Shown here: positions 31,802 to 42,711 of the stretch, piece after piece
Layout: every line of letters begins with the position of its first letter
How positions within the stretch are numbered: position 1 is the stretch's first letter
NCBI GenBank assembly: GCA_965249555.1
Contig: OZ252243.1
Span: 1,152,001-1,216,000 of the forward strand
DNA from: Nitrosopumilus sp.
GTDB taxonomy: Archaea > Thermoproteota > Nitrososphaeria > Nitrososphaerales > Nitrosopumilaceae
DNA: 64,000 bases
Direction: 5' to 3'
The notes under the pieces: model-generated
What the model was told of the DNA's origin: nothing
The model's input: only the letters and a program-made list of their open reading frames with translations
Databases searched by the model: none
Position numbers and translations under genes: made by a program

Positions 31802-32353
31802 TTAATCTCTCAAATTAAAGAAATCAGTTTTGCCAAAGTTTGATGAAAGTTTTCTTTCATCAATCCATGAACATTCTGTACATTTTATAGCATCACGCAT
31901 TGGTACAACTTTACCTCCACATTTTCTACATTTTGTGAATAAAACTCCTAAATTGGGTTCACTAATTGTTGCATGAATTGTACCATTAAGATGACTAAGA
32001 ATTTTCAATGTTACTATATCGTTAACTAGTGCCACGTTTCTTATTCTGATATTTCGTGTTCCACATATGCATTCCACTTTTGATGTAGTAGGTTTTCCAT
32101 TAATGTAATCCATTGATACAGCAATCATAGATGACATTACTGCTGCAACTGTTCCAATAACAATGTCTCCATCTTTTGGAATTGATAGAAGTTTTGGATG
32201 CTTAATGCTTGCAATACGTGTTGTTTTATCAATGTCTTTTTCTCCTACAGTCGCTGCTCTGACCATATTTCCATCATCAAAAGTGTTGTATCCAGCCTCA
32301 TATTCTTCAATAGATGCTATTTTGTCACCTGGAAATGCTGTATTTTCTGACAT
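31802..32353 (-). CDS. csl4: Exosome RNA-binding protein Csl4
   Basis: PGD..EEY, S1 domain, CRKC..CTEC and ERKLS. Confidence 0.92.
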   Translation of the reverse strand: MSENTAFPGDKIASIEEYEAGYNTFDDGNMVRAATVGEKDIDKTTRIASIKHPKLLSIPKDGDIVIGTVAAVMSSMIAVSMDYINGKPTTSKVECICGTRNIRIRNVALVNDIVTLKILSHLNGTIHATISEPNLGVLFTKCRKCGGKVVPMRDAIKCTECSWIDERKLSSNFGKTDFFNLRD

Positions 32354-32441
32354 GTTGTGATTTTTGCTGTTATGATTATAATTGTTTGTGGTGCGAAAGT
32401 CCTGTTAACTTTGTGGGTGTATCTTCTTCGTGTTTACACTG

Positions 32442-32492
32442 TAAATTCTTAGGGACATTTCATTTTCTCTCAAAATTCTGTAAACTTGGGGA
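32442..32492 (-). repeat. 51-bp dispersed repeat, copy 1 (probable solo transposon end)
   Basis: Exact reverse complement of 48807-48857. Confidence 0.85.
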
Positions 32493-32569
32493 CATGAAAA
32501 TCTGATCAGTATGTGCATTTATCTAGATCGATATAGAATATTTCTTCACTGATTTCGGATTTTACTGAT

Positions 32570-33067
32570 TTAATTATTAAAAAAATGACAGATAAGAGTT
32601 CCAGATAACGAAATCACAGAAATAATCATACAAATTAATGCTATTCGTAAATATCTAAATTTTTCACTTTGAATATCTGCTATACTGTAAATATTATCTA
32701 AAAAATCTTGTAATATGTTTTCGACAGTCATCATTTGTACCCTTTTTCTATATTCTTCTTTTGTTTGTTGAGTTATAGATTTGTAAAAAATTATACTTTC
32801 AAATTGAGTTTTTTGAGTAATTCTAGGAAAGATGACTAGGAATGAGAAAAAAATAGTGGCACTCAGGAACCCTATCGTGGTTATTAATCCAAATATAAGA
32901 TATTTGTCCAAATTTATTTTCTCAGAAAACACTAAAAGACCCATGATGATTCCTGCTGAACCTAAAATCAATCCTGCCTTTGTGTCTGCAAAATTTATCA
33001 GATCTACATTATGTTGGAGGATTGATTTTACAAGTTCAATTTTTTCATCCATTGTATCTTTACTCAT
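32570..33067 (-). CDS. pycTM: Pycsar-type transmembrane effector (DUF5706-like)
   Basis: INFADTKAG, TM helices, FPR..SIIFYKSI and EKFRYLR; 1-nt overlap with the cyclase stop. Confidence 0.85.
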   Translation of the reverse strand: MSKDTMDEKIELVKSILQHNVDLINFADTKAGLILGSAGIIMGLLVFSEKINLDKYLIFGLITTIGFLSATIFFSFLVIFPRITQKTQFESIIFYKSITQQTKEEYRKRVQMMTVENILQDFLDNIYSIADIQSEKFRYLRIALICMIISVISLSGTLICHFFNN

Positions 33068-33798
33068 TAATTATATCCATTCCAATGTGCACTATAATGA
33101 TAAAATCTATACTTTTTGTTAGTTGCAATATCCACCCACTCAAAGTCATCTCTATTGTTTTGCATAGTGCAATACGATTGTTCCATTTGAGATAATTCCG
33201 AATATACAGAATCACCTAAAAATATTTGATGCTCTCCAGCAAATTCTTCTAATTGTTTTGCTATGCTTACTTCATTACCAACTAAAGTTAATTGATTCAT
33301 TCCTTGTACACCTACACGTGCAACCCATATGTTCCCATAATCTAATCCAATAGAACATGAAAAACGAGGTAACTTTATTGAGTCAAGATATGCATTTATT
33401 GCATAATTAATTTCAGTTAAAATTGTCAATCCACAATCTATTGCGTTTGAAATTGCTTTTTCTTTACTTATTCCCACTCCAAATAAGGCTGTAATTCCAT
33501 CTCCAACATATTTTTCTATGAATCCATCATAATCTCTGATTACATAAGTTAATTCTGAAAGATAAATGTTAAGAAATCGTAGTTTCTCATCATTAGATAA
33601 ATTCCCTGTTAGTTTTTTAAAATTATTCATATCGATATGCATTACTACAAGTCCAAATTCTTTGGCTTCCCCTAATCTCATGTCATCAATTTTTGGTATA
33701 GTTTTTCCTGATGTAATGTCATCAAATTCTCGATCACAATCAAACTGTTTTACTCTATTTTTGGCTTCAATTATTGTGTTATTATTATTCCATGGCAT
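33067..33798 (-). CDS. pycC: Class III nucleotide cyclase (Pycsar PycC-like)
   Basis: HIDMNNF, EKYVGDG, IGLDYG and VGNEV motifs; directly upstream of a DUF5706-like effector. Confidence 0.8.
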   Translation of the reverse strand: MPWNNNNTIIEAKNRVKQFDCDREFDDITSGKTIPKIDDMRLGEAKEFGLVVMHIDMNNFKKLTGNLSNDEKLRFLNIYLSELTYVIRDYDGFIEKYVGDGITALFGVGISKEKAISNAIDCGLTILTEINYAINAYLDSIKLPRFSCSIGLDYGNIWVARVGVQGMNQLTLVGNEVSIAKQLEEFAGEHQIFLGDSVYSELSQMEQSYCTMQNNRDDFEWVDIATNKKYRFYHYSAHWNGYN

Positions 33799-33980
33799 AT
33801 GCGTAGAGTAAAACTATGTTCTTAATTAGTATGAGTCATTAGTATTCAATCTTTTAAAAAATTGAAATATGAACTTGTATACAAATTATCAGAAATTGTT
33901 TAATGTGTTTAGAGGCCACTCTTAACATGGATACTATTGAAAATAAGAAAGGTCCTAATGGAGAATCCAGCAAAAAGTCA

Positions 33981-34071
33981 GGTAAACCATCAGGCCGATA
34001 GAGCTGGAATTGAGATTAAAGGGGATAACAAATGGTTAACCATAATCCAAAACGCCTCACTCTATAATTAA
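33981..34071 (+). pseudogene. C-terminal fragment of IS6/IS1-like DDE transposase
   Basis: AGIEIKGDNKWLTIIQNASLYN* is typical of archaeal DDE transposase tails. Confidence 0.6.
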
Positions 34072-34238
34072 AATTCTATTAGAATAGTAAAATAGTTATA
34101 TGATTATTCTGTGTATCAAAATTAACTTGAGTTTGGCTTGTCTTTGCCTGTGATTTGCTATCACAATTAAGACAAAAAATGAAGCCTTATACTCCTATCG
34201 GGCATAAGGTAGATTCTTTTTATTTTAAAAAAATTAAT

Positions 34239-34321
34239 GCTACGGTACGCAAGTCTGGTATGCGGGAAGACTTCTAATCTTCTGCCCGATAGGTTCGGGG
34301 ATTCGAATCCCTCTCGTAGCG
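34239..34321 (+). tRNA. Non-canonical tRNA-like gene, anticodon TCT (Arg), long variable arm
   Basis: Acceptor GCTACGG/TCGTAGC, D-stem CGCA/TGCG with TGG loop, anticodon stem GAAGA/TCTTC with loop CT-TCT-AA, 14-nt variable region, T-loop TTCGAAT. Confidence 0.8.
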
Positions 34322-34623
34322 AGGGGTTCTGCATGGTTACGTAACGCAATGGTAGAGGCTGCAAATACTACAGTACGATTTGATGAAAGAATGGAATCAT
34401 TCTATTTCAGAATTACAAAGAGAAGAAAACAAAAGTGGCAGCTGCAAGACCGGATGCTTGCAATAATCCGGGCACATGCTAACTCTGAAAGTGTATCGTA
34501 CACAAAATCATGAACTGACACAACGAAAGTATAAGATGCAAGGCATATCTGAGATGTCCTGATTCAGCAAAGCACGCTAGGAAGTGTCCTCAGTAGGGTT
34601 GGAGACGATTTCGTATGGGAGAA
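34322..34623 (+). mobile_element. 3' remnant of a second IS110-family element (copy A)
   Basis: Frameshifted RGSAWLRNAMVEAANTTVRFDERMESFYFRITKRR..AAAR..MLAII.HMLT..QRKYK plus a short 3' non-coding end. Confidence 0.75.
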
Positions 34624-34625
34624 TC

Positions 34626-34922
34626 TTATAGACCACTATTTTTATTACCATTAGATGTTACAGTACAAGTTATTTTATCATCATCACCAGTATCTAGATT
34701 ATTTTTCCAATGCAGTGGAATTAAATTTGAGATATTATTTGACCCACCTTTTGATTCAGCTTTTATATGATGGATTTCCCAACCAAAATCTGATTGCCTA
34801 TCTCCATGTGCAGAAAGTTTTATCCATGCTCCACACACATCTTTTCTAAAATCGTTTTTATCATTATTTTTATCTATCTCTCCGTTACACCAGACATCTG
34901 TTTTGATATCGTTATTGGACAA
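34626..34922 (-). CDS. HNH endonuclease
   Basis: RKDVCGAWI..GWEIHHI...GGSNNISNLIPLHWKNN. Confidence 0.88.
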   Translation of the reverse strand: MSNNDIKTDVWCNGEIDKNNDKNDFRKDVCGAWIKLSAHGDRQSDFGWEIHHIKAESKGGSNNISNLIPLHWKNNLDTGDDDKITCTVTSNGNKNSGL

Positions 34923-35174
34923 TATGGTGAATAATGAATTATCATTATTAAGTGTAATACATTTACATCTTAAGATCGTCTTAACTAATTTTCCGTTCTC
35001 TTACAATTCTAACGCAATATGATATACCGTGAGATTTATTGGCAAATCTTCCGTTTTTTACTTCATGATCTACCCACTTTAGGAGTTCATAATCTATTGA
35101 TATGGCTGTCTTGATTTTCGTACACAAAGTTATACCAAATATAACTTAAATGCGGTAAAACTAGGTTATACTTT

Positions 35175-36947
35175 ATGATTAAATTTGTCTTTATTTTGTT
35201 AATTACCATTACATTTATTCCAGCATTTGCTGATAGTCATCCAGTTTCAAGGGATTATTTTTATGAATGGAAAGAATGGGCATATGATATATTTGATTGG
35301 TATAAAAATCAAATATCAACACTTGAATCTGAAAATGAAAAATTAAAGCTGCAGATTGCACATTATCAAAATGAACCAAATTATAACGATCCTGATTATG
35401 ATACCCATTCAAAATATCTAACACCAGAACTAATAACACAACAACAAGAACAGATAACACAAGATCAAAATAATGAAGATATGAGAGTTGTTTATTATGA
35501 TAATGGAAATATTAAACAGATTTTTGATAGTGATGGATTTTTAATTGTTGAGTATTATGAAAGTGGAAGTTTTAAGTCTTATTTTAATGAATTTTATAAT
35601 GATGAGATAATTAAAAAATATAGTAAAACTGGAATAGAAGAAACATTTGAGAATTATAAACAAGAAAAACAACAAGATGGTTTGTTAGATGGTCAAGCCT
35701 TAGATTCTAATGGAAATCTTGTATTACTTACTGCAGAATCTCAATATGCACATCATCTAAAAACATTAGAATTAAATGAAGAAAGAGGTATGGGACCTTT
35801 TCATGATGGTTTTAGGTTTGGACCAGATAGTTATTATGACAAATTATGTGAAGATTCAAACAGAAATTGGATAATACCAACCATTGAGTTAGAATTTCCT
35901 ACATCTCAGACTTTGGGAAATACAGAATACATCTATCATATGCCAAATGAGAATGAAATTGTAGTTGAGGGAAGTGTGATTAAATCAAATGATTATGATA
36001 AATATGTTTCAGTCTATTTCAATTTTTTTACTGATGACGAACTGCGTCAAACTGATTTAATTGGAATTACTGTTAGTTCTGGAATAGTTGGCACTGTTTG
36101 GAATAGTGATAATCCTAACAATTTTGGAAGAATATTAGATAAAGATGATGGAAGATTTTCTACAAGTTTCAATAAAAATACTATAGATGAGATATTAGGT
36201 TCTGATCCTGTTTATGACAAACATGTATCTAGTTTTTATAAAATAACAGTGAATTATGATGATCAATGTGGATTTAAAAAGTTTGATTATGTTAGATACA
36301 TTGAAGATATAACACCCACAATAAATGAAATACCAACACTAGAACCAAAGGTAACACCAGAAACAACCAAAGACCTAACACGAATAGAGTATGATGATAA
36401 TGGAAACAAAAAATATTATTATAAAAATAATATTTTGGTTGCAGAGTATTATGAAAATGGAAACTTTAAGGTTCTTTATGATGATAATGGTAATCTAATT
36501 AAAAAATATCCAGTATCTAAACAATCAATATATGAGTCAACTCCAACAATAAATGAAATATCAAAAGACCCATCCGAATCAATTGAAGTCAAATATTACA
36601 AAATACCATTACCATTTAGTAATGGGAATTTTGCTAATGCACATAGAAGCCATGCAGAAGTAATTACAATTGATGTAAATGTTGCTTGTATAGATGGGAA
36701 ATCTTCGTGTTTTACTCCAGATAGAACAGTAATACCAGTTGGTGGGGAGGTTATTTTTGTAGTAAATGATGGTTTTGGACATGTCATTGTTCAAGGAACT
36801 GATAGGGCTAAACCATATGATGGTGAATTTAGAGTAGATAATTTAGTTAGAGGTGGACAGTTTTCACATGTTTTTGATAATGCAGGAGAATATCCATACT
36901 TTTCTCATATACATCCTAATGCAGAAGGTATTGTAATAGTAGAATAA
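35175..36947 (+). CDS. Secreted protein with MORN-variant-like repeats and C-terminal cupredoxin-like domain
   Basis: Signal peptide (PAFA), YYxNGN repeats, CFTP..GHVIV..FSHVFDNAGEYPYFSHIHPNAEG. Confidence 0.8.
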   Translation: MIKFVFILLITITFIPAFADSHPVSRDYFYEWKEWAYDIFDWYKNQISTLESENEKLKLQIAHYQNEPNYNDPDYDTHSKYLTPELITQQQEQITQDQNNEDMRVVYYDNGNIKQIFDSDGFLIVEYYESGSFKSYFNEFYNDEIIKKYSKTGIEETFENYKQEKQQDGLLDGQALDSNGNLVLLTAESQYAHHLKTLELNEERGMGPFHDGFRFGPDSYYDKLCEDSNRNWIIPTIELEFPTSQTLGNTEYIYHMPNENEIVVEGSVIKSNDYDKYVSVYFNFFTDDELRQTDLIGITVSSGIVGTVWNSDNPNNFGRILDKDDGRFSTSFNKNTIDEILGSDPVYDKHVSSFYKITVNYDDQCGFKKFDYVRYIEDITPTINEIPTLEPKVTPETTKDLTRIEYDDNGNKKYYYKNNILVAEYYENGNFKVLYDDNGNLIKKYPVSKQSIYESTPTINEISKDPSESIEVKYYKIPLPFSNGNFANAHRSHAEVITIDVNVACIDGKSSCFTPDRTVIPVGGEVIFVVNDGFGHVIVQGTDRAKPYDGEFRVDNLVRGGQFSHVFDNAGEYPYFSHIHPNAEGIVIVE

Positions 36948-36980
36948 CACTACTAACAACATAATTCTTTCAATATCTTT

Positions 36981-38214
36981 TGGTCTGGTCCCCTCTAGAA
37001 TGAGAACGTCTACATACACTTTTCAGGGGATCTAGGAGATTCACACTCATGGTAAAGAGCAAATTCACACCTGCAGAAAAATCAAGAATAATTCTTGAAT
37101 CATTAAACACCAACATTGGAACTGCAGAATTGTGCAGAAAGCACAACATTCATCCGCAGACATTCTACTCTTGGAAAGAAAAGTTTGTGGATGGAGGCAA
37201 ATCCGCATTAAACAGCAGGATCTGATGACAATACATGCAAGACATTACAAAAAGAAAATGAGACTCTAAAAAGAATTGTAGGTGAGTTGACCATCGTCAA
37301 TGACACTTTTAAAAAAATGTTGGAGGGACACAAAAGATGATCATTGCAAAGCAACTCACTGCAAAATTGAGTCTGAGAAAATCATTATCATACGTTGGGA
37401 TATCACACAACAAATGGTACCATACAAAATCCCCCCGAAACATTCCACTAAACAAGACCGTATCCCAAATGGTCCAAAAGATTGGAAATGCCAGGCCAAC
37501 ATATGGAACCCGTAGGATGGCTGCAGCCACAGCAAGGGAGCTTGGATTGCCTGTAAACAGAAAGCAGATTCGCAGAATATTCCACAAGCTAGGCTGGATT
37601 GCACCTGCAAAGACCAAAAAAGACATCATGGCATCCAAAAAGAAACTTTTCAAACCGACTGCGCCAAACCAGTTGTGGCAGACAGATATGACATATGTCT
37701 GGTGTGGAGTTGATGGTTGGTGTTACTGCTTTAATGTCATAGATACATTTAGCAGAAAATGGATTTCATACATATTTGATGTAACTGCAAGCAAAGATGC
37801 TGCAACAGAATCAATCATTCATGCAATTGCAACTTCCAATCCGGATTGTGCCAAACTGATTATACGAACTGACAATGGTTCGCAATATGTAAGCCGAAAG
37901 TTCAGAGAAGCAATCCTGCTTTTGGGTGCAAGACAGGAATTCATCTGGCACCATACACCACAACAAAATGGTCATGTCGAATCGTTTCATAAAACGTTAA
38001 AGAAGGAATATCTCTGGCCACACGAGTTTGAAAATTTCCAATCAGCACAAGAATTGCCAAGGCATTTGAGGATTACAACGATTCCAGGATTCACTCTGCA
38101 CTTGGATACATCACGCCAGATGAATTTCTGGAAAAATGGGAGATGAGACATGAATGAGGGTAATTGTATGTAAAATTATGCAAAAAGTGCTCTCATTTAG
38201 TGGGGTCCACTCCA
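36981..38214 (+). mobile_element. IS3-family insertion sequence (frameshifted)
   Basis: Imperfect IRs TGGTCTGGTCCCC.. / ..GGGGTCCACTCCA; HTH OrfA from 37049; OrfB 37337-38146 with WQTDMTY, TDNGSQY, NGHVESFH. Confidence 0.9.
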
Positions 38215-38218
38215 CCAA

Positions 38219-38280
38219 TTGCTAGTAATTTTTGATGTTGAAGGTGTTTTATATGATGAAGAATATCTCACTATTCTTTC
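38219..38280 (+). pseudogene. N-terminal fragment of a HAD phosphatase (phosphoserine phosphatase-like)
   Basis: TTG start gives MLVIFDVEGVLYDEEYL, then runs into the IS110 remnant. Confidence 0.6.
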
Positions 38281-38495
38281 AGAATTGCAAAGAGAAGAAA
38301 ACAAAGGTGGTAGCTGCAAGACCGGATGCTTGCAATAATCCGGGCACATGCTAACTCTGAAAGTGTATCGTACACAAAATCATGAACTGACACAACGAAA
38401 GTATAAGATGCAAGGCATATCTGAGATGTCCTGATTCAGCAAAGCACGCTAGGAAGTGTCCTCAGTAGGGTTGGAGACGATTTCGTATGGGAGAA
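38277..38495 (+). mobile_element. IS110 3' remnant (copy B), 219-bp direct repeat of 34405-34623
   Basis: Near-identical to copy A (3 mismatches seen). Confidence 0.85.
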
Positions 38496-38548
38496 CCGGT
38501 GTGAAAGATCTTGGCAAATCATATATCTCCAAAAATTTGAAAAAAATC

Positions 38549-39625
38549 ATGAAAGCCCTTGTATATGATCAATATACTACTGATGATGATTTTTCTAAAA
38601 TCTTAAAAATCAAAGATATTCCTTCCCCTAAACCAAAACCTGATGAAGTTATTTTCAAAGTAAAAACAGCATCACTCAACTATGATGATATTTGGGGAAT
38701 GAGAGGTAAACCACTGGCAATTCCATTACCACACATATCTGGAACTGATGCTGCAGGGGAAGTTACTGCAGTTGGTAGTGATGTAAAAACTATCAAAGTT
38801 GGTGACAGAGTAGTTTCCCATGGAAATATGTCATGTAGAGTTTGCAAAGCATGTACTGATGGACGAGAATATGATTGTAGAAAACGAACTATTTGGGGTT
38901 TTGAAACAGGTCCGCTTTGGGGTGGATATTGTGAAGAAACTCATCTTCCTGAAGTCAATGTTGTGAAAATTCCTGAAAATGTGTCATATGATGCTGCTGC
39001 AGCTGCATCAATGACTTTACTGACAGCATGGCACATGCTAATTGGAAGAGCAAAAATTCAACCTGGACAATTAGTTTTGATTATGGGTGGAAGTTCAGGT
39101 GTTGGAAATTATGGAATTCAAATCGCAAAACTTTTTGGATGTACTGTAATTGCCACTGCTAGTCCTGATAAGTTGGAAAAATTACTGGACTTGGGAGCTG
39201 ATTATGCAGTAGATCATAGAAATGATGATTGGCACAAAGAAGTTAGAGCAATTACAAAAAAAATCTCGAAACCTTCTGGTGATATATCTGGAGTTGATGT
39301 AATTTTTGAACATATTGGAGGTTCTCACTGGAACAAAGAGCTAACTTTGCTAAATTATGGTGGAACAATTGTTACTACTGGGGCAACAACAGGTTATGAT
39401 GCAAAGACTGACCTACGTCACATTTTCTTCAAAGGAATCAACATTTTAGGTTCAACTCAAGGAACTAGAGCTGAATTAGAACTTGGTCTCTATTGGATGT
39501 CCCAAGGAAAAATAAAATCTGTAATTGATTCAGTGTATTCACTTGAACAGGCAGCAGAGGCTCACACAAAAATGCTGAAAGGCAAAGGACTTTTTGGAAA
39601 AATCTTAATGAAACCAGGATCATGA
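38549..39625 (+). CDS. Zn-binding alcohol dehydrogenase/MDR oxidoreductase
   Basis: MKALV start, GTDAAG, CRVCKAC..C, GGSSGVG; ORF-track extension to 38456 comes from the repeat. Confidence 0.92.
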   Translation: MKALVYDQYTTDDDFSKILKIKDIPSPKPKPDEVIFKVKTASLNYDDIWGMRGKPLAIPLPHISGTDAAGEVTAVGSDVKTIKVGDRVVSHGNMSCRVCKACTDGREYDCRKRTIWGFETGPLWGGYCEETHLPEVNVVKIPENVSYDAAAAASMTLLTAWHMLIGRAKIQPGQLVLIMGGSSGVGNYGIQIAKLFGCTVIATASPDKLEKLLDLGADYAVDHRNDDWHKEVRAITKKISKPSGDISGVDVIFEHIGGSHWNKELTLLNYGGTIVTTGATTGYDAKTDLRHIFFKGINILGSTQGTRAELELGLYWMSQGKIKSVIDSVYSLEQAAEAHTKMLKGKGLFGKILMKPGS

Positions 39626-41309: not shown

Positions 41310-42635
41310 ATGGATGAAACTGTTCTCAATATTGGATTTGATGATACTGATTCTCCTAAAGGAATGTGTACCACATTTCTAGCATACAAAATTGTTGATT
41401 TACTTCAAAAACAGGACGCTGAATTTCTTGATTTTCCAAGATTAATTCGATTTAATCCTAATATTCCATGGAAAACTCGTGGTAATGGAGCAGTTTCAAT
41501 CAGAATAAAGACTAAAAATCCTTCTAAGATAAAAAATCAAATTAAAAATCTTGTTTCAAGATACTCTGATGTTAAAAATGGGGCAAATCCTGGTTTAGTA
41601 TTTTTTGAAAGTGATGCAATTCCTACTGAGTTTACTAATTTTAGTAACTTAGCTTTGTGGCAATTAATTAATAGAAACAATGCAAAAAAATTTGCCAAAA
41701 AAAATGATCTTGAATTTTTCTATCAAGGAAATGGTCAAGGACTTGTTGGTGCAATTGGTGCAATAGGGTATGATTTTCAAGATCATACCTTAGAACTTTT
41801 AAGTTATCGTAAAAGAAAAAAATTTGGAAAAGAAAGAAAACTTTCTGCTTCAAGTGTAAAAATTATGCAGGAAAAAACTTTGCCAAATACGTTTAATAGT
41901 TTTGATACAAAAAAAGGACGAATTTTAATTACTCCGCATGGCCCTGATCCTGTATTTTATGGTGTTAGAGGTGAAAATGTAAATTCATTATTGTATGCTA
42001 CAAAAATTCTGAAAAGTGATGAAAAATTAGATGGTTACATGATCTTCAAATCTAATCAAGGAACTGGAGATCATTTGAAAAATGAATTAAATTTTGAAAA
42101 TATGAAACCTTATGCTTCTGGAAAAATCACCGGAATTGTATCAGATACACCAAAAATTGTCAAAGGCGGACATGTCTTTTTTAAAATTTTCTCTCAAAGT
42201 CATGAATTTTGGTGTGCAGTTTACAAACCGACAGGAATCTCATCTGTTGCTCTGAATTTGATTAAAGGAGACAAAATATGTGTCGGTGGAGGAGTTCGAA
42301 AGGCATCTAAAAAATTTCCTCGAATCATTAATCTCGAATTTATTGATATCATTCACCTTGAAAAGAATCTTTCAAAATCTAATCCAATTTGCAAAAAATG
42401 TAACAAAAACATGAAATCCAAAGGTCAGAATCAAGGATTTCAGTGTATTCGATGTGGAAAAAAAGCTTCTAAAAAAATAACTATTGAAATTTCAAGAAAG
42501 ATCAGAAAACAACTGTATATTCCAAAAATGTCTGCACATAGACACCTAACAAGACCTTTGCAACGAATTGGAATTTCTAACAAAATCTCAAAATTTGATA
42601 AATCTCTTTCATGGTTTTGCGTTTATAGAAACTAA
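41310..42635 (+). CDS. tiaS: tRNA(Ile2) agmatinylcytidine synthetase
   Basis: DDTDSPKGMCTT, NPNIPWKTRGNGA, SNQGTGDH, Zn ribbon and RHLTRP. Confidence 0.95.
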   Translation: MDETVLNIGFDDTDSPKGMCTTFLAYKIVDLLQKQDAEFLDFPRLIRFNPNIPWKTRGNGAVSIRIKTKNPSKIKNQIKNLVSRYSDVKNGANPGLVFFESDAIPTEFTNFSNLALWQLINRNNAKKFAKKNDLEFFYQGNGQGLVGAIGAIGYDFQDHTLELLSYRKRKKFGKERKLSASSVKIMQEKTLPNTFNSFDTKKGRILITPHGPDPVFYGVRGENVNSLLYATKILKSDEKLDGYMIFKSNQGTGDHLKNELNFENMKPYASGKITGIVSDTPKIVKGGHVFFKIFSQSHEFWCAVYKPTGISSVALNLIKGDKICVGGGVRKASKKFPRIINLEFIDIIHLEKNLSKSNPICKKCNKNMKSKGQNQGFQCIRCGKKASKKITIEISRKIRKQLYIPKMSAHRHLTRPLQRIGISNKISKFDKSLSWFCVYRN

Positions 42636-42636
42636 G

Positions 42637-42711
42637 TAGCGGGGAGTAGATTTGAACTACTGATTTGCGGGTTATGAGCCCGCCGGGATGACCTGACTTC
42701 CCCACCCCGCT
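42637..42711 (-). tRNA. Initiator tRNA-Met (CAT)
   Basis: AGCGGGG..GCGGG CTCATAA CCCGC..GTTCAAATC..CCCCGCTA; A1-U72 pair and three G-C pairs in the anticodon stem. Confidence 0.97.

Follow-up and report, generated by a model that had tools for sequence, protein, structure and literature searches.

A class II tRNA gene with the arginine anticodon UCU lies at positions 34239..34321 (plus strand) of a stretch of 64,000 nt from Nitrosopumilus sp. (contig OZ252243.1, positions 1,152,001 to 1,216,000), which is referred to here as the window. This gene belongs to a mobile family of class II tRNAs found in Nitrosopumilus and its viruses. The family unit comprises about 200 nt, in which a leader with two hairpins and a T-rich, TATA-like block is followed by a tRNA of 82-85 nt that carries G73. 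Judged by its sequence features, the body of the tRNA is Ser-like and not of the Arg type. The source genome is a single contig of 2.23 Mb with 34.4% G+C; positions on it are marked 'genome', and all others are those of the window.

ARAGORN called a tRNA-Arg(tct) at 34238-34322. With Rfam in E-value mode, model RF00005 matched 34239-34321 over its full length (model positions 1-71; 44.5 bits, E 2e-08, gathering threshold 29), and the only non-standard pair of this alignment was located in the T stem. A run in gathering mode with fast filters overlooked the gene and gave only the initiator tRNA at 42637-42711. The sequence can be read as a cloverleaf of 83 nt. Its acceptor stem is formed by GCTACGG and TCGTAGC and includes a G7-U66 pair, while the D stem (CGCA/TGCG) and the anticodon stem (GAAGA/TCTTC, enclosing the loop CTTCTAA) are fully paired. 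The D loop is AGTCTGGTA (also written AGUCUGGUA), which places a U at position 20. The variable region TGCCCGATAGGTTC can be divided into U-GCC-CGAUA-GGU-UC; with 14 nt and a GCC/GGT stem it exceeds the 10 nt and forms the stem-loop that define class II. In the T stem (GGGGA/CCCTC), A53 at position 34301 faces C61, and the discriminator is G73 at position 34321. The geometry is that of a 7-bp acceptor stem and a 5-bp T stem, both of which show covariation, and U8 is unable to pair with C65. A preliminary description of this DNA had listed the 83-nt cloverleaf, the paired D and anticodon stems, the 14-nt variable region, U20, the A53-C61 mismatch and an AT-rich upstream region, and all of these were found again when the sequence was re-read. 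The separate canonical tRNA-Arg(TCT) for which it proposed a check is present as a 77-nt tRNA-Arg(UCU) at genome c[1250739-1250815] (ARAGORN), so that the gene at 34239-34321 is an extra gene.

When 150 further genomes of the genus were searched at the DNA level, family members consisting of the tRNA and its upstream region were observed in G163, G153 and G017. G164 carries only the upstream region without the tRNA, and a match in G102 consists of merely 30 AT-rich bases. The source genome contains a second copy at 2222197-2222279, which has broken stems and received no ARAGORN call. Pattern scans added two IMG/VR contigs and two metagenome contigs. The family is small, with nine cloverleaf copies and one internally duplicated copy. 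Two more IMG/VR scans gave the same two contigs and nothing further, a scan with a D-arm pattern added only two unrelated matches (one a coding stretch rich in G+C, the other a phage tRNA-Pro), and a pattern scan of genome contigs gave the G163 record only. Among 400 Nitrosopumilaceae genomes, a sample that includes four unpublished genomes on which no result rests, the DNA search found the module confined to this genus; the other matches were to the T arm and spanned at most 36 nt. The archaeal and viral homologues that had been suggested as worth a search thus exist in Nitrosopumilus genomes, metagenome contigs and IMG/VR contigs.

An alignment of eight members (85 columns) supports the cloverleaf. 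In this alignment, 95.3% of the cloverleaf cells are paired and 10 of the 24 pairs have changed on both sides. None of 500 shuffles matched the family alignment, and sliding the partner strands reduced pairing to 42-55%. As an example of compensatory change, the acceptor stem of the virus copy is GCUGUGG/CCACGGC, compared to GCUACGG/UCGUAGC at 34239-34321. The minimum-energy structure of intact members is the cloverleaf. Across the family the variable arm measures 13-14 nt, and each of its three stem pairs is standard in seven of eight sequences. All decoding features are retained in the family, namely the 7-nt anticodon loop, U33, a purine at position 37, the T loop and the GG of the D loop. 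The G017 member (L025 1576-1732) carries a 74-nt internal tandem duplication, with an exact 33-nt direct repeat of the anticodon and variable arms 74 nt apart. Separately from these features, the module has a flanking motif TACAAGGAAAATTCA... in G017, and in L035 this motif stands on both sides of it; in the 64-kb window, this 15-nt motif does not occur above chance.

The anticodon differs between members. UCU is found in four of them (34239-34321, the second copy, L035 and L036), CCU in G163 and G153, UCG in G017, GCG in L068 and UAU in L069. Arg anticodons (NCU or NCG, with C35 and U36 or G36) are therefore present in eight of nine members and cover both Arg codon boxes, and a Ser anticodon (NGA or GCU) in none. 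In L069 all stems are paired, and the anticodon loop has been remodelled to UUUAUGA with G37. The preliminary description would have regarded TCT as a decay mutation if all homologues carried GCT. Since GCU occurs in no homologue, UCU is not a decay mutation. Its suspicion that the G discriminator, sitting at an IS110 junction, may not be original has to be dropped as well: all nine members carry G73, so this base is original.

To compare the body with the tRNAs of the host, we used a covariance model built from the family (R1). In the source genome, R1 gave 94.8 bits for 34239-34321 and 77 bits for the second copy. The best non-family matches were the canonical tRNA-Ser(GCU) with 66 bits and tRNA-Ser(UGA) with 65.3 bits, followed by the tRNA-Leu genes with 42-53 bits and tRNA-Arg(UCG) with 37 and 30 bits; the canonical tRNA-Arg(UCU) and tRNA-Arg(GCG) were not reported at E<=0.01. 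In the 150 other genomes of the genus, the recurrent top non-family match was 84 nt long and scored about 75 bits among the matches listed (about 150 of about 1,300). Among these listed matches, the one in G095 is a tRNA-Ser(gct) according to ARAGORN, and it is the only listed place tied to a gene in this way. ARAGORN also called tRNA-Ser(gct) at the short T-arm matches of the family in three of six loci examined. A crude pairwise identity to host tRNAs is length-biased and was not used as isotype evidence.

The family and the host tRNA-Ser have in common a 9-nt D loop (AGYYUGGUA), a G after the D stem, a variable-arm frame with one unpaired nucleotide on the 5' side and two on the 3' side, and G73. 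The variable-arm stem has 3 bp in the family versus 4 bp in the three intron-less host tRNA-Ser genes that were read. The canonical host tRNA-Arg genes that were read carry GGATA, i.e. A20, and a 5-nt variable loop. Thus the gene at 34239-34321 combines the long arm and G73 of a tRNA-Ser with an anticodon that is not that of a tRNA-Ser; of the tRNA-Arg features it shows C35 with U36, but neither A20, which all canonical host tRNA-Arg possess and which is replaced here by U20, nor a short variable loop. The R1 ranking, the D loop, the arm frame, G73 and the lack of A20 bear out the preliminary description where it assigned a Ser-type rather than an Arg-type body. Its alternative of leucine insertion at AGA appears unlikely from these features. 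In host tRNA-Leu, the D loop spans 12 nt, the arm is followed on its 3' side by three unpaired nucleotides and the discriminator is A73; the A73 and long D loop with positions 20a and 20b expected of an archaeal tRNA-Leu are not seen at 34239-34321, which has G73 and a short D loop. An archaeal tRNA-Sec would show 9/4 geometry, a long D stem and UCA; the gene has 7/5 geometry, a 4-bp D stem and UCU.

The copy in the window is damaged. The A53-C61 mismatch occurs in this copy only (one of eight aligned members), and the G53-C61 pair that closes the 7-nt T loop of a functional tRNA is accordingly absent. In the predicted minimum-energy fold, the T arm forms a 6-bp stem with a 4-nt loop, and the frequency of the cloverleaf in the ensemble is 0.02 (z -1.14). 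A run of T follows G73 in three of the six other members whose downstream sequence was read (G163, G017 and the virus copy L036). At 34239-34321, sequence of an insertion sequence (IS) stands in place of this run: the 3' end of an IS110-family element, 5'-truncated and about 305 nt long, starts at the tRNA discriminator (34321..34625, plus strand; at least 15 genome matches at 91-97%) and its translation gives a decayed transposase C-terminus. DNA contigs from three runs of two studies, with the source sample possibly among them, are identical over 33900-34350, including A53 and the IS junction. Because the change of G53 to A53 breaks the T arm and the IS fragment replaces the T-run terminator, this copy is likely to be weak or inactive, as far as the predicted structure indicates. 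Degenerate or decayed copies in the family are the one in the window, the second copy of the source genome and that of G017.

About 110 nt upstream of the tRNA are common to all ten aligned loci. Leader hairpin 1 (34140..34173, plus strand) has two tiers, an outer GTCTT/AAGAC and an inner TGTGAT/ATCACA. It is kept in the window locus, G163, G153, L035, L069 and G164, and missing in L036, L068 and the second copy of the source genome; as it is mostly invariant, the support from covariation is weak. An A-rich linker with AUGAAG leads to leader hairpin 2 (34184..34210, plus strand; GCCTTAT...ATAAGGT), which lies between an A run and a T run and was observed in all ten loci. Hairpin 2 shows one compensatory pair (CCTTGT/ACAAGG in G164), and its G-U changes fit the plus strand only. 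The T-rich, TATA-like block that abuts the tRNA (34211..34238, plus strand) is of the GGATTTTTATTATTTTT type and kept in all ten loci. From its composition and position, it might be a promoter, a terminator of the leader, or both. The hairpins could form a small RNA; a role as terminator, insulator or operator would also be conceivable. A leader open reading frame (ORF; MKPYTP...) was considered and rejected, as its frame is broken by indels across the aligned loci.

The mobility of the module is evident from its distribution. L036 is situated in the 46,717-bp IMG/VR record G477, which has 131-bp direct terminal repeats, a CheckV completeness of 100% and 33.2% G+C. Genes of this virus include those for the large subunit of a terminase, a giant protein resembling a tail fibre, DNA methyltransferases and a tyrosine integrase. 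The start of the integrase is separated by about 300 nt from the module, which holds the only tRNA of the virus; beyond the module, the virus and the source genome have nothing else of note in common. In the window, the gene is part of a 6.1-kb inserted island (32354..38455) between the exosome Csl4-like gene (31802..32353, minus strand) and the zinc alcohol dehydrogenase gene (38456..39625, plus strand), as delimited by comparison of the spacing with relatives. Both genes are present in 17 other Nitrosopumilus genomes; the gap between them measures 37-65 bp in 14 of these, and 3.5-6.6 kb with different cargo in the other three. The site is a recurrent insertion hotspot. As 14 of 17 relatives have no insertion at this site and a complete virus carries the same module, the horizontal acquisition proposed earlier holds.

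With regard to the amino acid, we tentatively favour charging of the family tRNAs with serine, or dual charging with serine and arginine, although this reading falls a little short of an even chance. The tRNA would be transcribed from its own promoter, processed and provided with a CCA tail like a usual tRNA. Seryl-tRNA synthetase (SerRS) has been described to read the long arm and G73 (PMC7609411); because it reads these elements and disregards the anticodon, the tRNA is likely to be a SerRS substrate. Serine, or a mixture of serine and arginine, would then be inserted at AGA, the anticodon having been shifted on a tRNA-Ser(GCU)-like body to Arg codons, in this gene to UCU. Besides the Ser-like body, the kept arm, the lack of A20, the intact UAU member L069 and two more class II/G73 families in the genus (see below) are consistent with serine. 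According to the account of bacterial allo-tRNAs in PMC5389517, such tRNAs insert serine in Escherichia coli, have UAU and GCG as dominant anticodons together with readers of AGA and AGG, and sit near toxin-antitoxin systems and transposons.

Several observations weigh against serine. The Arg anticodons of eight of nine members come in four forms (UCU, CCU, UCG and GCG) and fit a synthetase that reads C35 and U36 or G36. Of the Arg codons, AGA accounts for 60% in the host, where its use is 20.8 per 1000 codons, and for 68% in virus G477; it makes up about 2% of all codons. Serine inserted there in appreciable amounts would do great harm, and no avoidance of this codon is seen in the virus. G73 equally fits the host tRNA-Arg(UCU) and tRNA-Arg(GCG), and the 3-bp arm stem, 1 bp shorter than in host tRNA-Ser, may be a poor handle for SerRS. 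Arginine identity in archaea has not been determined experimentally, as stated in PMC9976931; elsewhere, by the same source, A20 and C35 are the main determinants, and yeast leans on the anticodon.

Some of these points would suit a true donor of arginine, which we regard as rather unlikely but as the most serious rival. Here, a virus-borne or otherwise mobile tRNA-Arg would have arisen when the anticodon of a tRNA-Ser(GCU) scaffold shifted, and arginyl-tRNA synthetase (ArgRS) would charge it via C35 and U36 or G36, so that it serves AGA. The long arm would then be a structural relic or an escape from tRNA-targeting nucleases. Viral tRNAs usually match codons that are commoner in the virus than in the host, and the complete virus, for which the module supplies the sole tRNA, has a larger share of AGA than its host. 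The four Arg anticodon forms and a discriminator shared with two host tRNA-Arg agree with this proposal, as does the yeast ArgRS, described as mainly using C35 and U36 or G36 (PMC9976931), and the harmlessness of such a tRNA would account for its persistence in chromosomes. On the other hand, A20 is missing although every canonical host tRNA-Arg has it, and R1 places the body far from tRNA-Arg. The variable-arm stem is kept though ArgRS has no need of it, an intact UAU member exists, and the sister class II/G73 families have Ile and Phe anticodons without the cognate A73.

It is unlikely, but again deserves attention, that the module is a tRNA look-alike that does not decode: a decoy for an anticodon nuclease or a tRNA-binding factor in the conflict between virus and host, a regulatory RNA produced along with the leader, or a module at which mobile DNA recombines or lands. 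Its constant linkage to a conserved structured leader, the integrase next to it in the virus, the defence genes and IS debris next to it in chromosomes, and the ready decay of copies would be explained, as would target codons too abundant for tolerated missense; many allo-tRNA(UAU) are described as translation-inactive and some as toxic (PMC5389517). Against this reading stand the retention of all decoding features and the remodelling of the anticodon loop along with the anticodon. Also, neither an att-like tRNA repeat in the source genome nor a protein partner conserved among the loci was observed. As an att site, the module was rejected, with no partial tRNA repeat in the source genome and only the module in common with G477. 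A 16-nt identity of the module to the T arm of tRNA-Ser(GCU) would not restore that gene.

To explanations other than serine or mixed charging, arginine, or mimicry we assign only a small chance. Taken by itself, the copy in the window might pass for a dead duplicate of the host tRNA-Ser(GCU) with G34 changed to U, a pseudogene without family or function, given A53-C61, the lost terminator and the single change from GCU to UCU. This is very improbable, since only about 60 of 82 positions are common with tRNA-Ser(GCU), and it is contradicted for the family, which has compensatory changes, its own leader and no GCU member. That the gene is a class I tRNA-Arg whose variable region harbours a small non-canonical intron is scarcely credible: such introns are reported as frequent in thaumarchaeotal tRNAs (bioRxiv 10.1101/614032) and ARAGORN reports intron-bearing tRNAs in the source genome, but the extra stretch has only 8-9 nt, inspection revealed no bulge-helix-bulge (no 4-bp helix between 3-nt bulges), a 3-bp stem with a 4-nt loop is kept as an arm in seven of eight members, and the rest of the body is Ser-like.

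Two sister families of class II tRNAs with G73 were observed. The second family is represented in the source genome by a perfect 87-nt cloverleaf with UAU and G37 outside the window (genome 1237756-1237842, plus strand; relatives L131-L138). Its relatives are present in seven of the 150 genus genomes, mostly with GAU, and otherwise with GAA or CAG, and are sometimes clustered (G164). A TiaS gene is encoded in the window (41310-42635), so AUA is already served. The third family (89-93 nt, 20-nt variable arm, GAA) is located at genome 181323-181415 (plus), 1539985-1540077 (minus), 1917746-1917838 (plus) and 2195354-2195442 (minus). It was also found in G009 (two copies) and G164, and 160-600 nt of flanking sequence are repeated with it. 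A fragment of the second family directly adjoins the copy at 2195354. Unlike the sister families with their G73, the canonical host tRNA-Ile and tRNA-Phe have A73. It is conceivable, but in our view improbable, that viruses and defence-island DNA of Nitrosopumilus carry at least three G73 families of Ser-charged class II tRNAs for abundant Arg, Ile and Phe codons, which would bring about leader-triggered poisoning or recoding of the proteome and serve as a tRNA-based weapon, for host shut-off or abortive infection, in the conflict between archaea and their viruses.

Further observations concern the tRNA calls of the source genome. The two identical canonical tRNA-Arg(UCG) genes and tRNA-Arg(GCG) (genome 252865-252939, 850193-850267 and 1659135-1659210) show an apparent A3-C70 mismatch in the acceptor stem, and the tRNA-Arg(UCG) genes an apparent U73. 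An 85-nt ARAGORN call of 'tRNA-Gly(acc)' at genome 491703-491787 (minus) has a variable region UUGCCUUUAGGGUUUC that resembles the family arm and scores 36 bits with R1; it may be a decayed relative of the family. About ten ARAGORN calls of 71-72 nt as 'tRNA-Phe(gaa)' or 'tRNA-Leu(aag/tag)' (for example at genome 58883, 92747, 506756, 1841925, 1886429, 2185020, 2194432 and 2214900) resemble members of a repeat family more than tRNA genes.

The island around the gene carries a Pycsar system, in which the cyclase and effector genes are adjacent: PycC at 33067..33798 (minus; Pfam Guanylate_cyc 7.4e-10, PADLOC PycC 3.1e-31) and PycTM at 32570..33067 (minus; Pfam PycTM 2.4e-15, PADLOC PycTM 7.7e-30). 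With these two neighbours, the preliminary description's term 'defence island' is fair, but the tRNA is linked to no single system. At 33940-34060 (plus) lies a frame-shifted remnant of a DDE (rve-type) transposase C-terminus (..GIEIKGDNKWLTIIQNAS..), which resembles the IS end abutting the tRNA in G153. Downstream of the IS110 fragment follow a small HNH endonuclease ORF (34626..34922, minus; Pfam HNH 6.5e-07) and a 590-aa ORF (35175..36947, plus) without Pfam or PADLOC match, a homologue of which was not found beside other family members. An IS3-type DDE (rve) transposase (37337..38146, plus; Pfam rve 1.8e-18, HTH_21) and a second partial 3' end of the same IS110-family element (38277..38495, plus, which is genome 1190277-1190495; blastn 98.6% over 219 nt) come next, the latter at the right edge of the island. 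At the same hotspot, G002 and G018 carry an ORF of 1554-1579 aa without known family, in G002 together with an IS, and G017 carries an HD/dGTPase-like and a DarG-like gene. The neighbours of other family members include restriction-modification genes, GmrSD fragments and IS elements. A conserved protein partner was rejected, as no protein is common to the family loci. In G163 and G017 (L030, L032), the module adjoins an archaeal ATPase operon; between the two operons, identity at subunits A and B is only about 55-58%.

The family is of greater interest than the damaged copy in the window itself. It is carried by a complete virus and by defence-island DNA in an archaeon that ranks among the most abundant of the ocean, and the commonest Arg codon is targeted. 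If the tRNAs are serylated, they would represent a natural mobile codon ambiguity at high-use codons. If they are arginylated, they would include the first class II tRNA-Arg and show a tRNA that switches its amino-acid identity. The scaffold might also interest builders of orthogonal tRNAs.

Compared to known systems, the family resembles the canonical archaeal tRNA-Ser(GCU) in its 7/5 cloverleaf, 9-nt D loop with U20, G73, arm frame of one and two unpaired nucleotides and nearly identical T arm. It differs by its other anticodons, a 3-bp instead of a 4-bp arm stem, AU-richer acceptor and anticodon stems, and its own conserved leader with an accessory, mobile distribution. Genes for tRNA-Arg(UCU) are common in tailed viruses, and like these the module provides a single tRNA gene in an integrase-bearing tailed virus, where it reads the commonest Arg codon of the virus. 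A class II body and the absence of A20, however, are to our knowledge not features of any known tRNA-Arg. A tRNA-Ser with UCU that reads AGR is found in mitochondria and, as described in PMC9976931, is not arginylated; there it reflects a fixed code change in organelles with reduced tRNA sets, whereas the source genome also has a canonical tRNA-Arg(UCU) and uses AGA as its main Arg codon.

The parallel to bacterial allo-tRNAs that had been drawn from this gene holds in part. As in the allo-tRNAs described by Mukai et al. 2017 (PMC5389517), a Ser-type body with a long arm is combined with a non-Ser anticodon in a mobile or toxin-antitoxin neighbourhood with many decayed copies, and the anticodon spectrum (UAU, GCG and readers of AGA and AGG) overlaps strikingly. 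The 8/4 or 9/3 acceptor/T geometry given there for allo-tRNAs is not present; the family is 7/5, archaeal and viral, and its target codons are abundant and not rare. The nev-tRNAs of nematodes are likewise class II tRNAs with class I anticodons, including UAU, alongside canonical tRNAs (PMC3333845, PMC4033280). They are described as Leu-charged, directed to rare codons and located on nematode chromosomes (PMC4033280), unlike the family with its G73, short D loop, abundant codons and viral carriage. In the literature we found no archaeal or archaeal-virus long-arm tRNA with a mismatched anticodon, although supplementary tables may contain one, and the table of a 2014 review gives no such tRNAs for archaea (PMC4033280). 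By analogy, the family would appear to be an archaeal counterpart of the allo-tRNAs and nev-tRNAs with canonical geometry, but it belongs to neither group.

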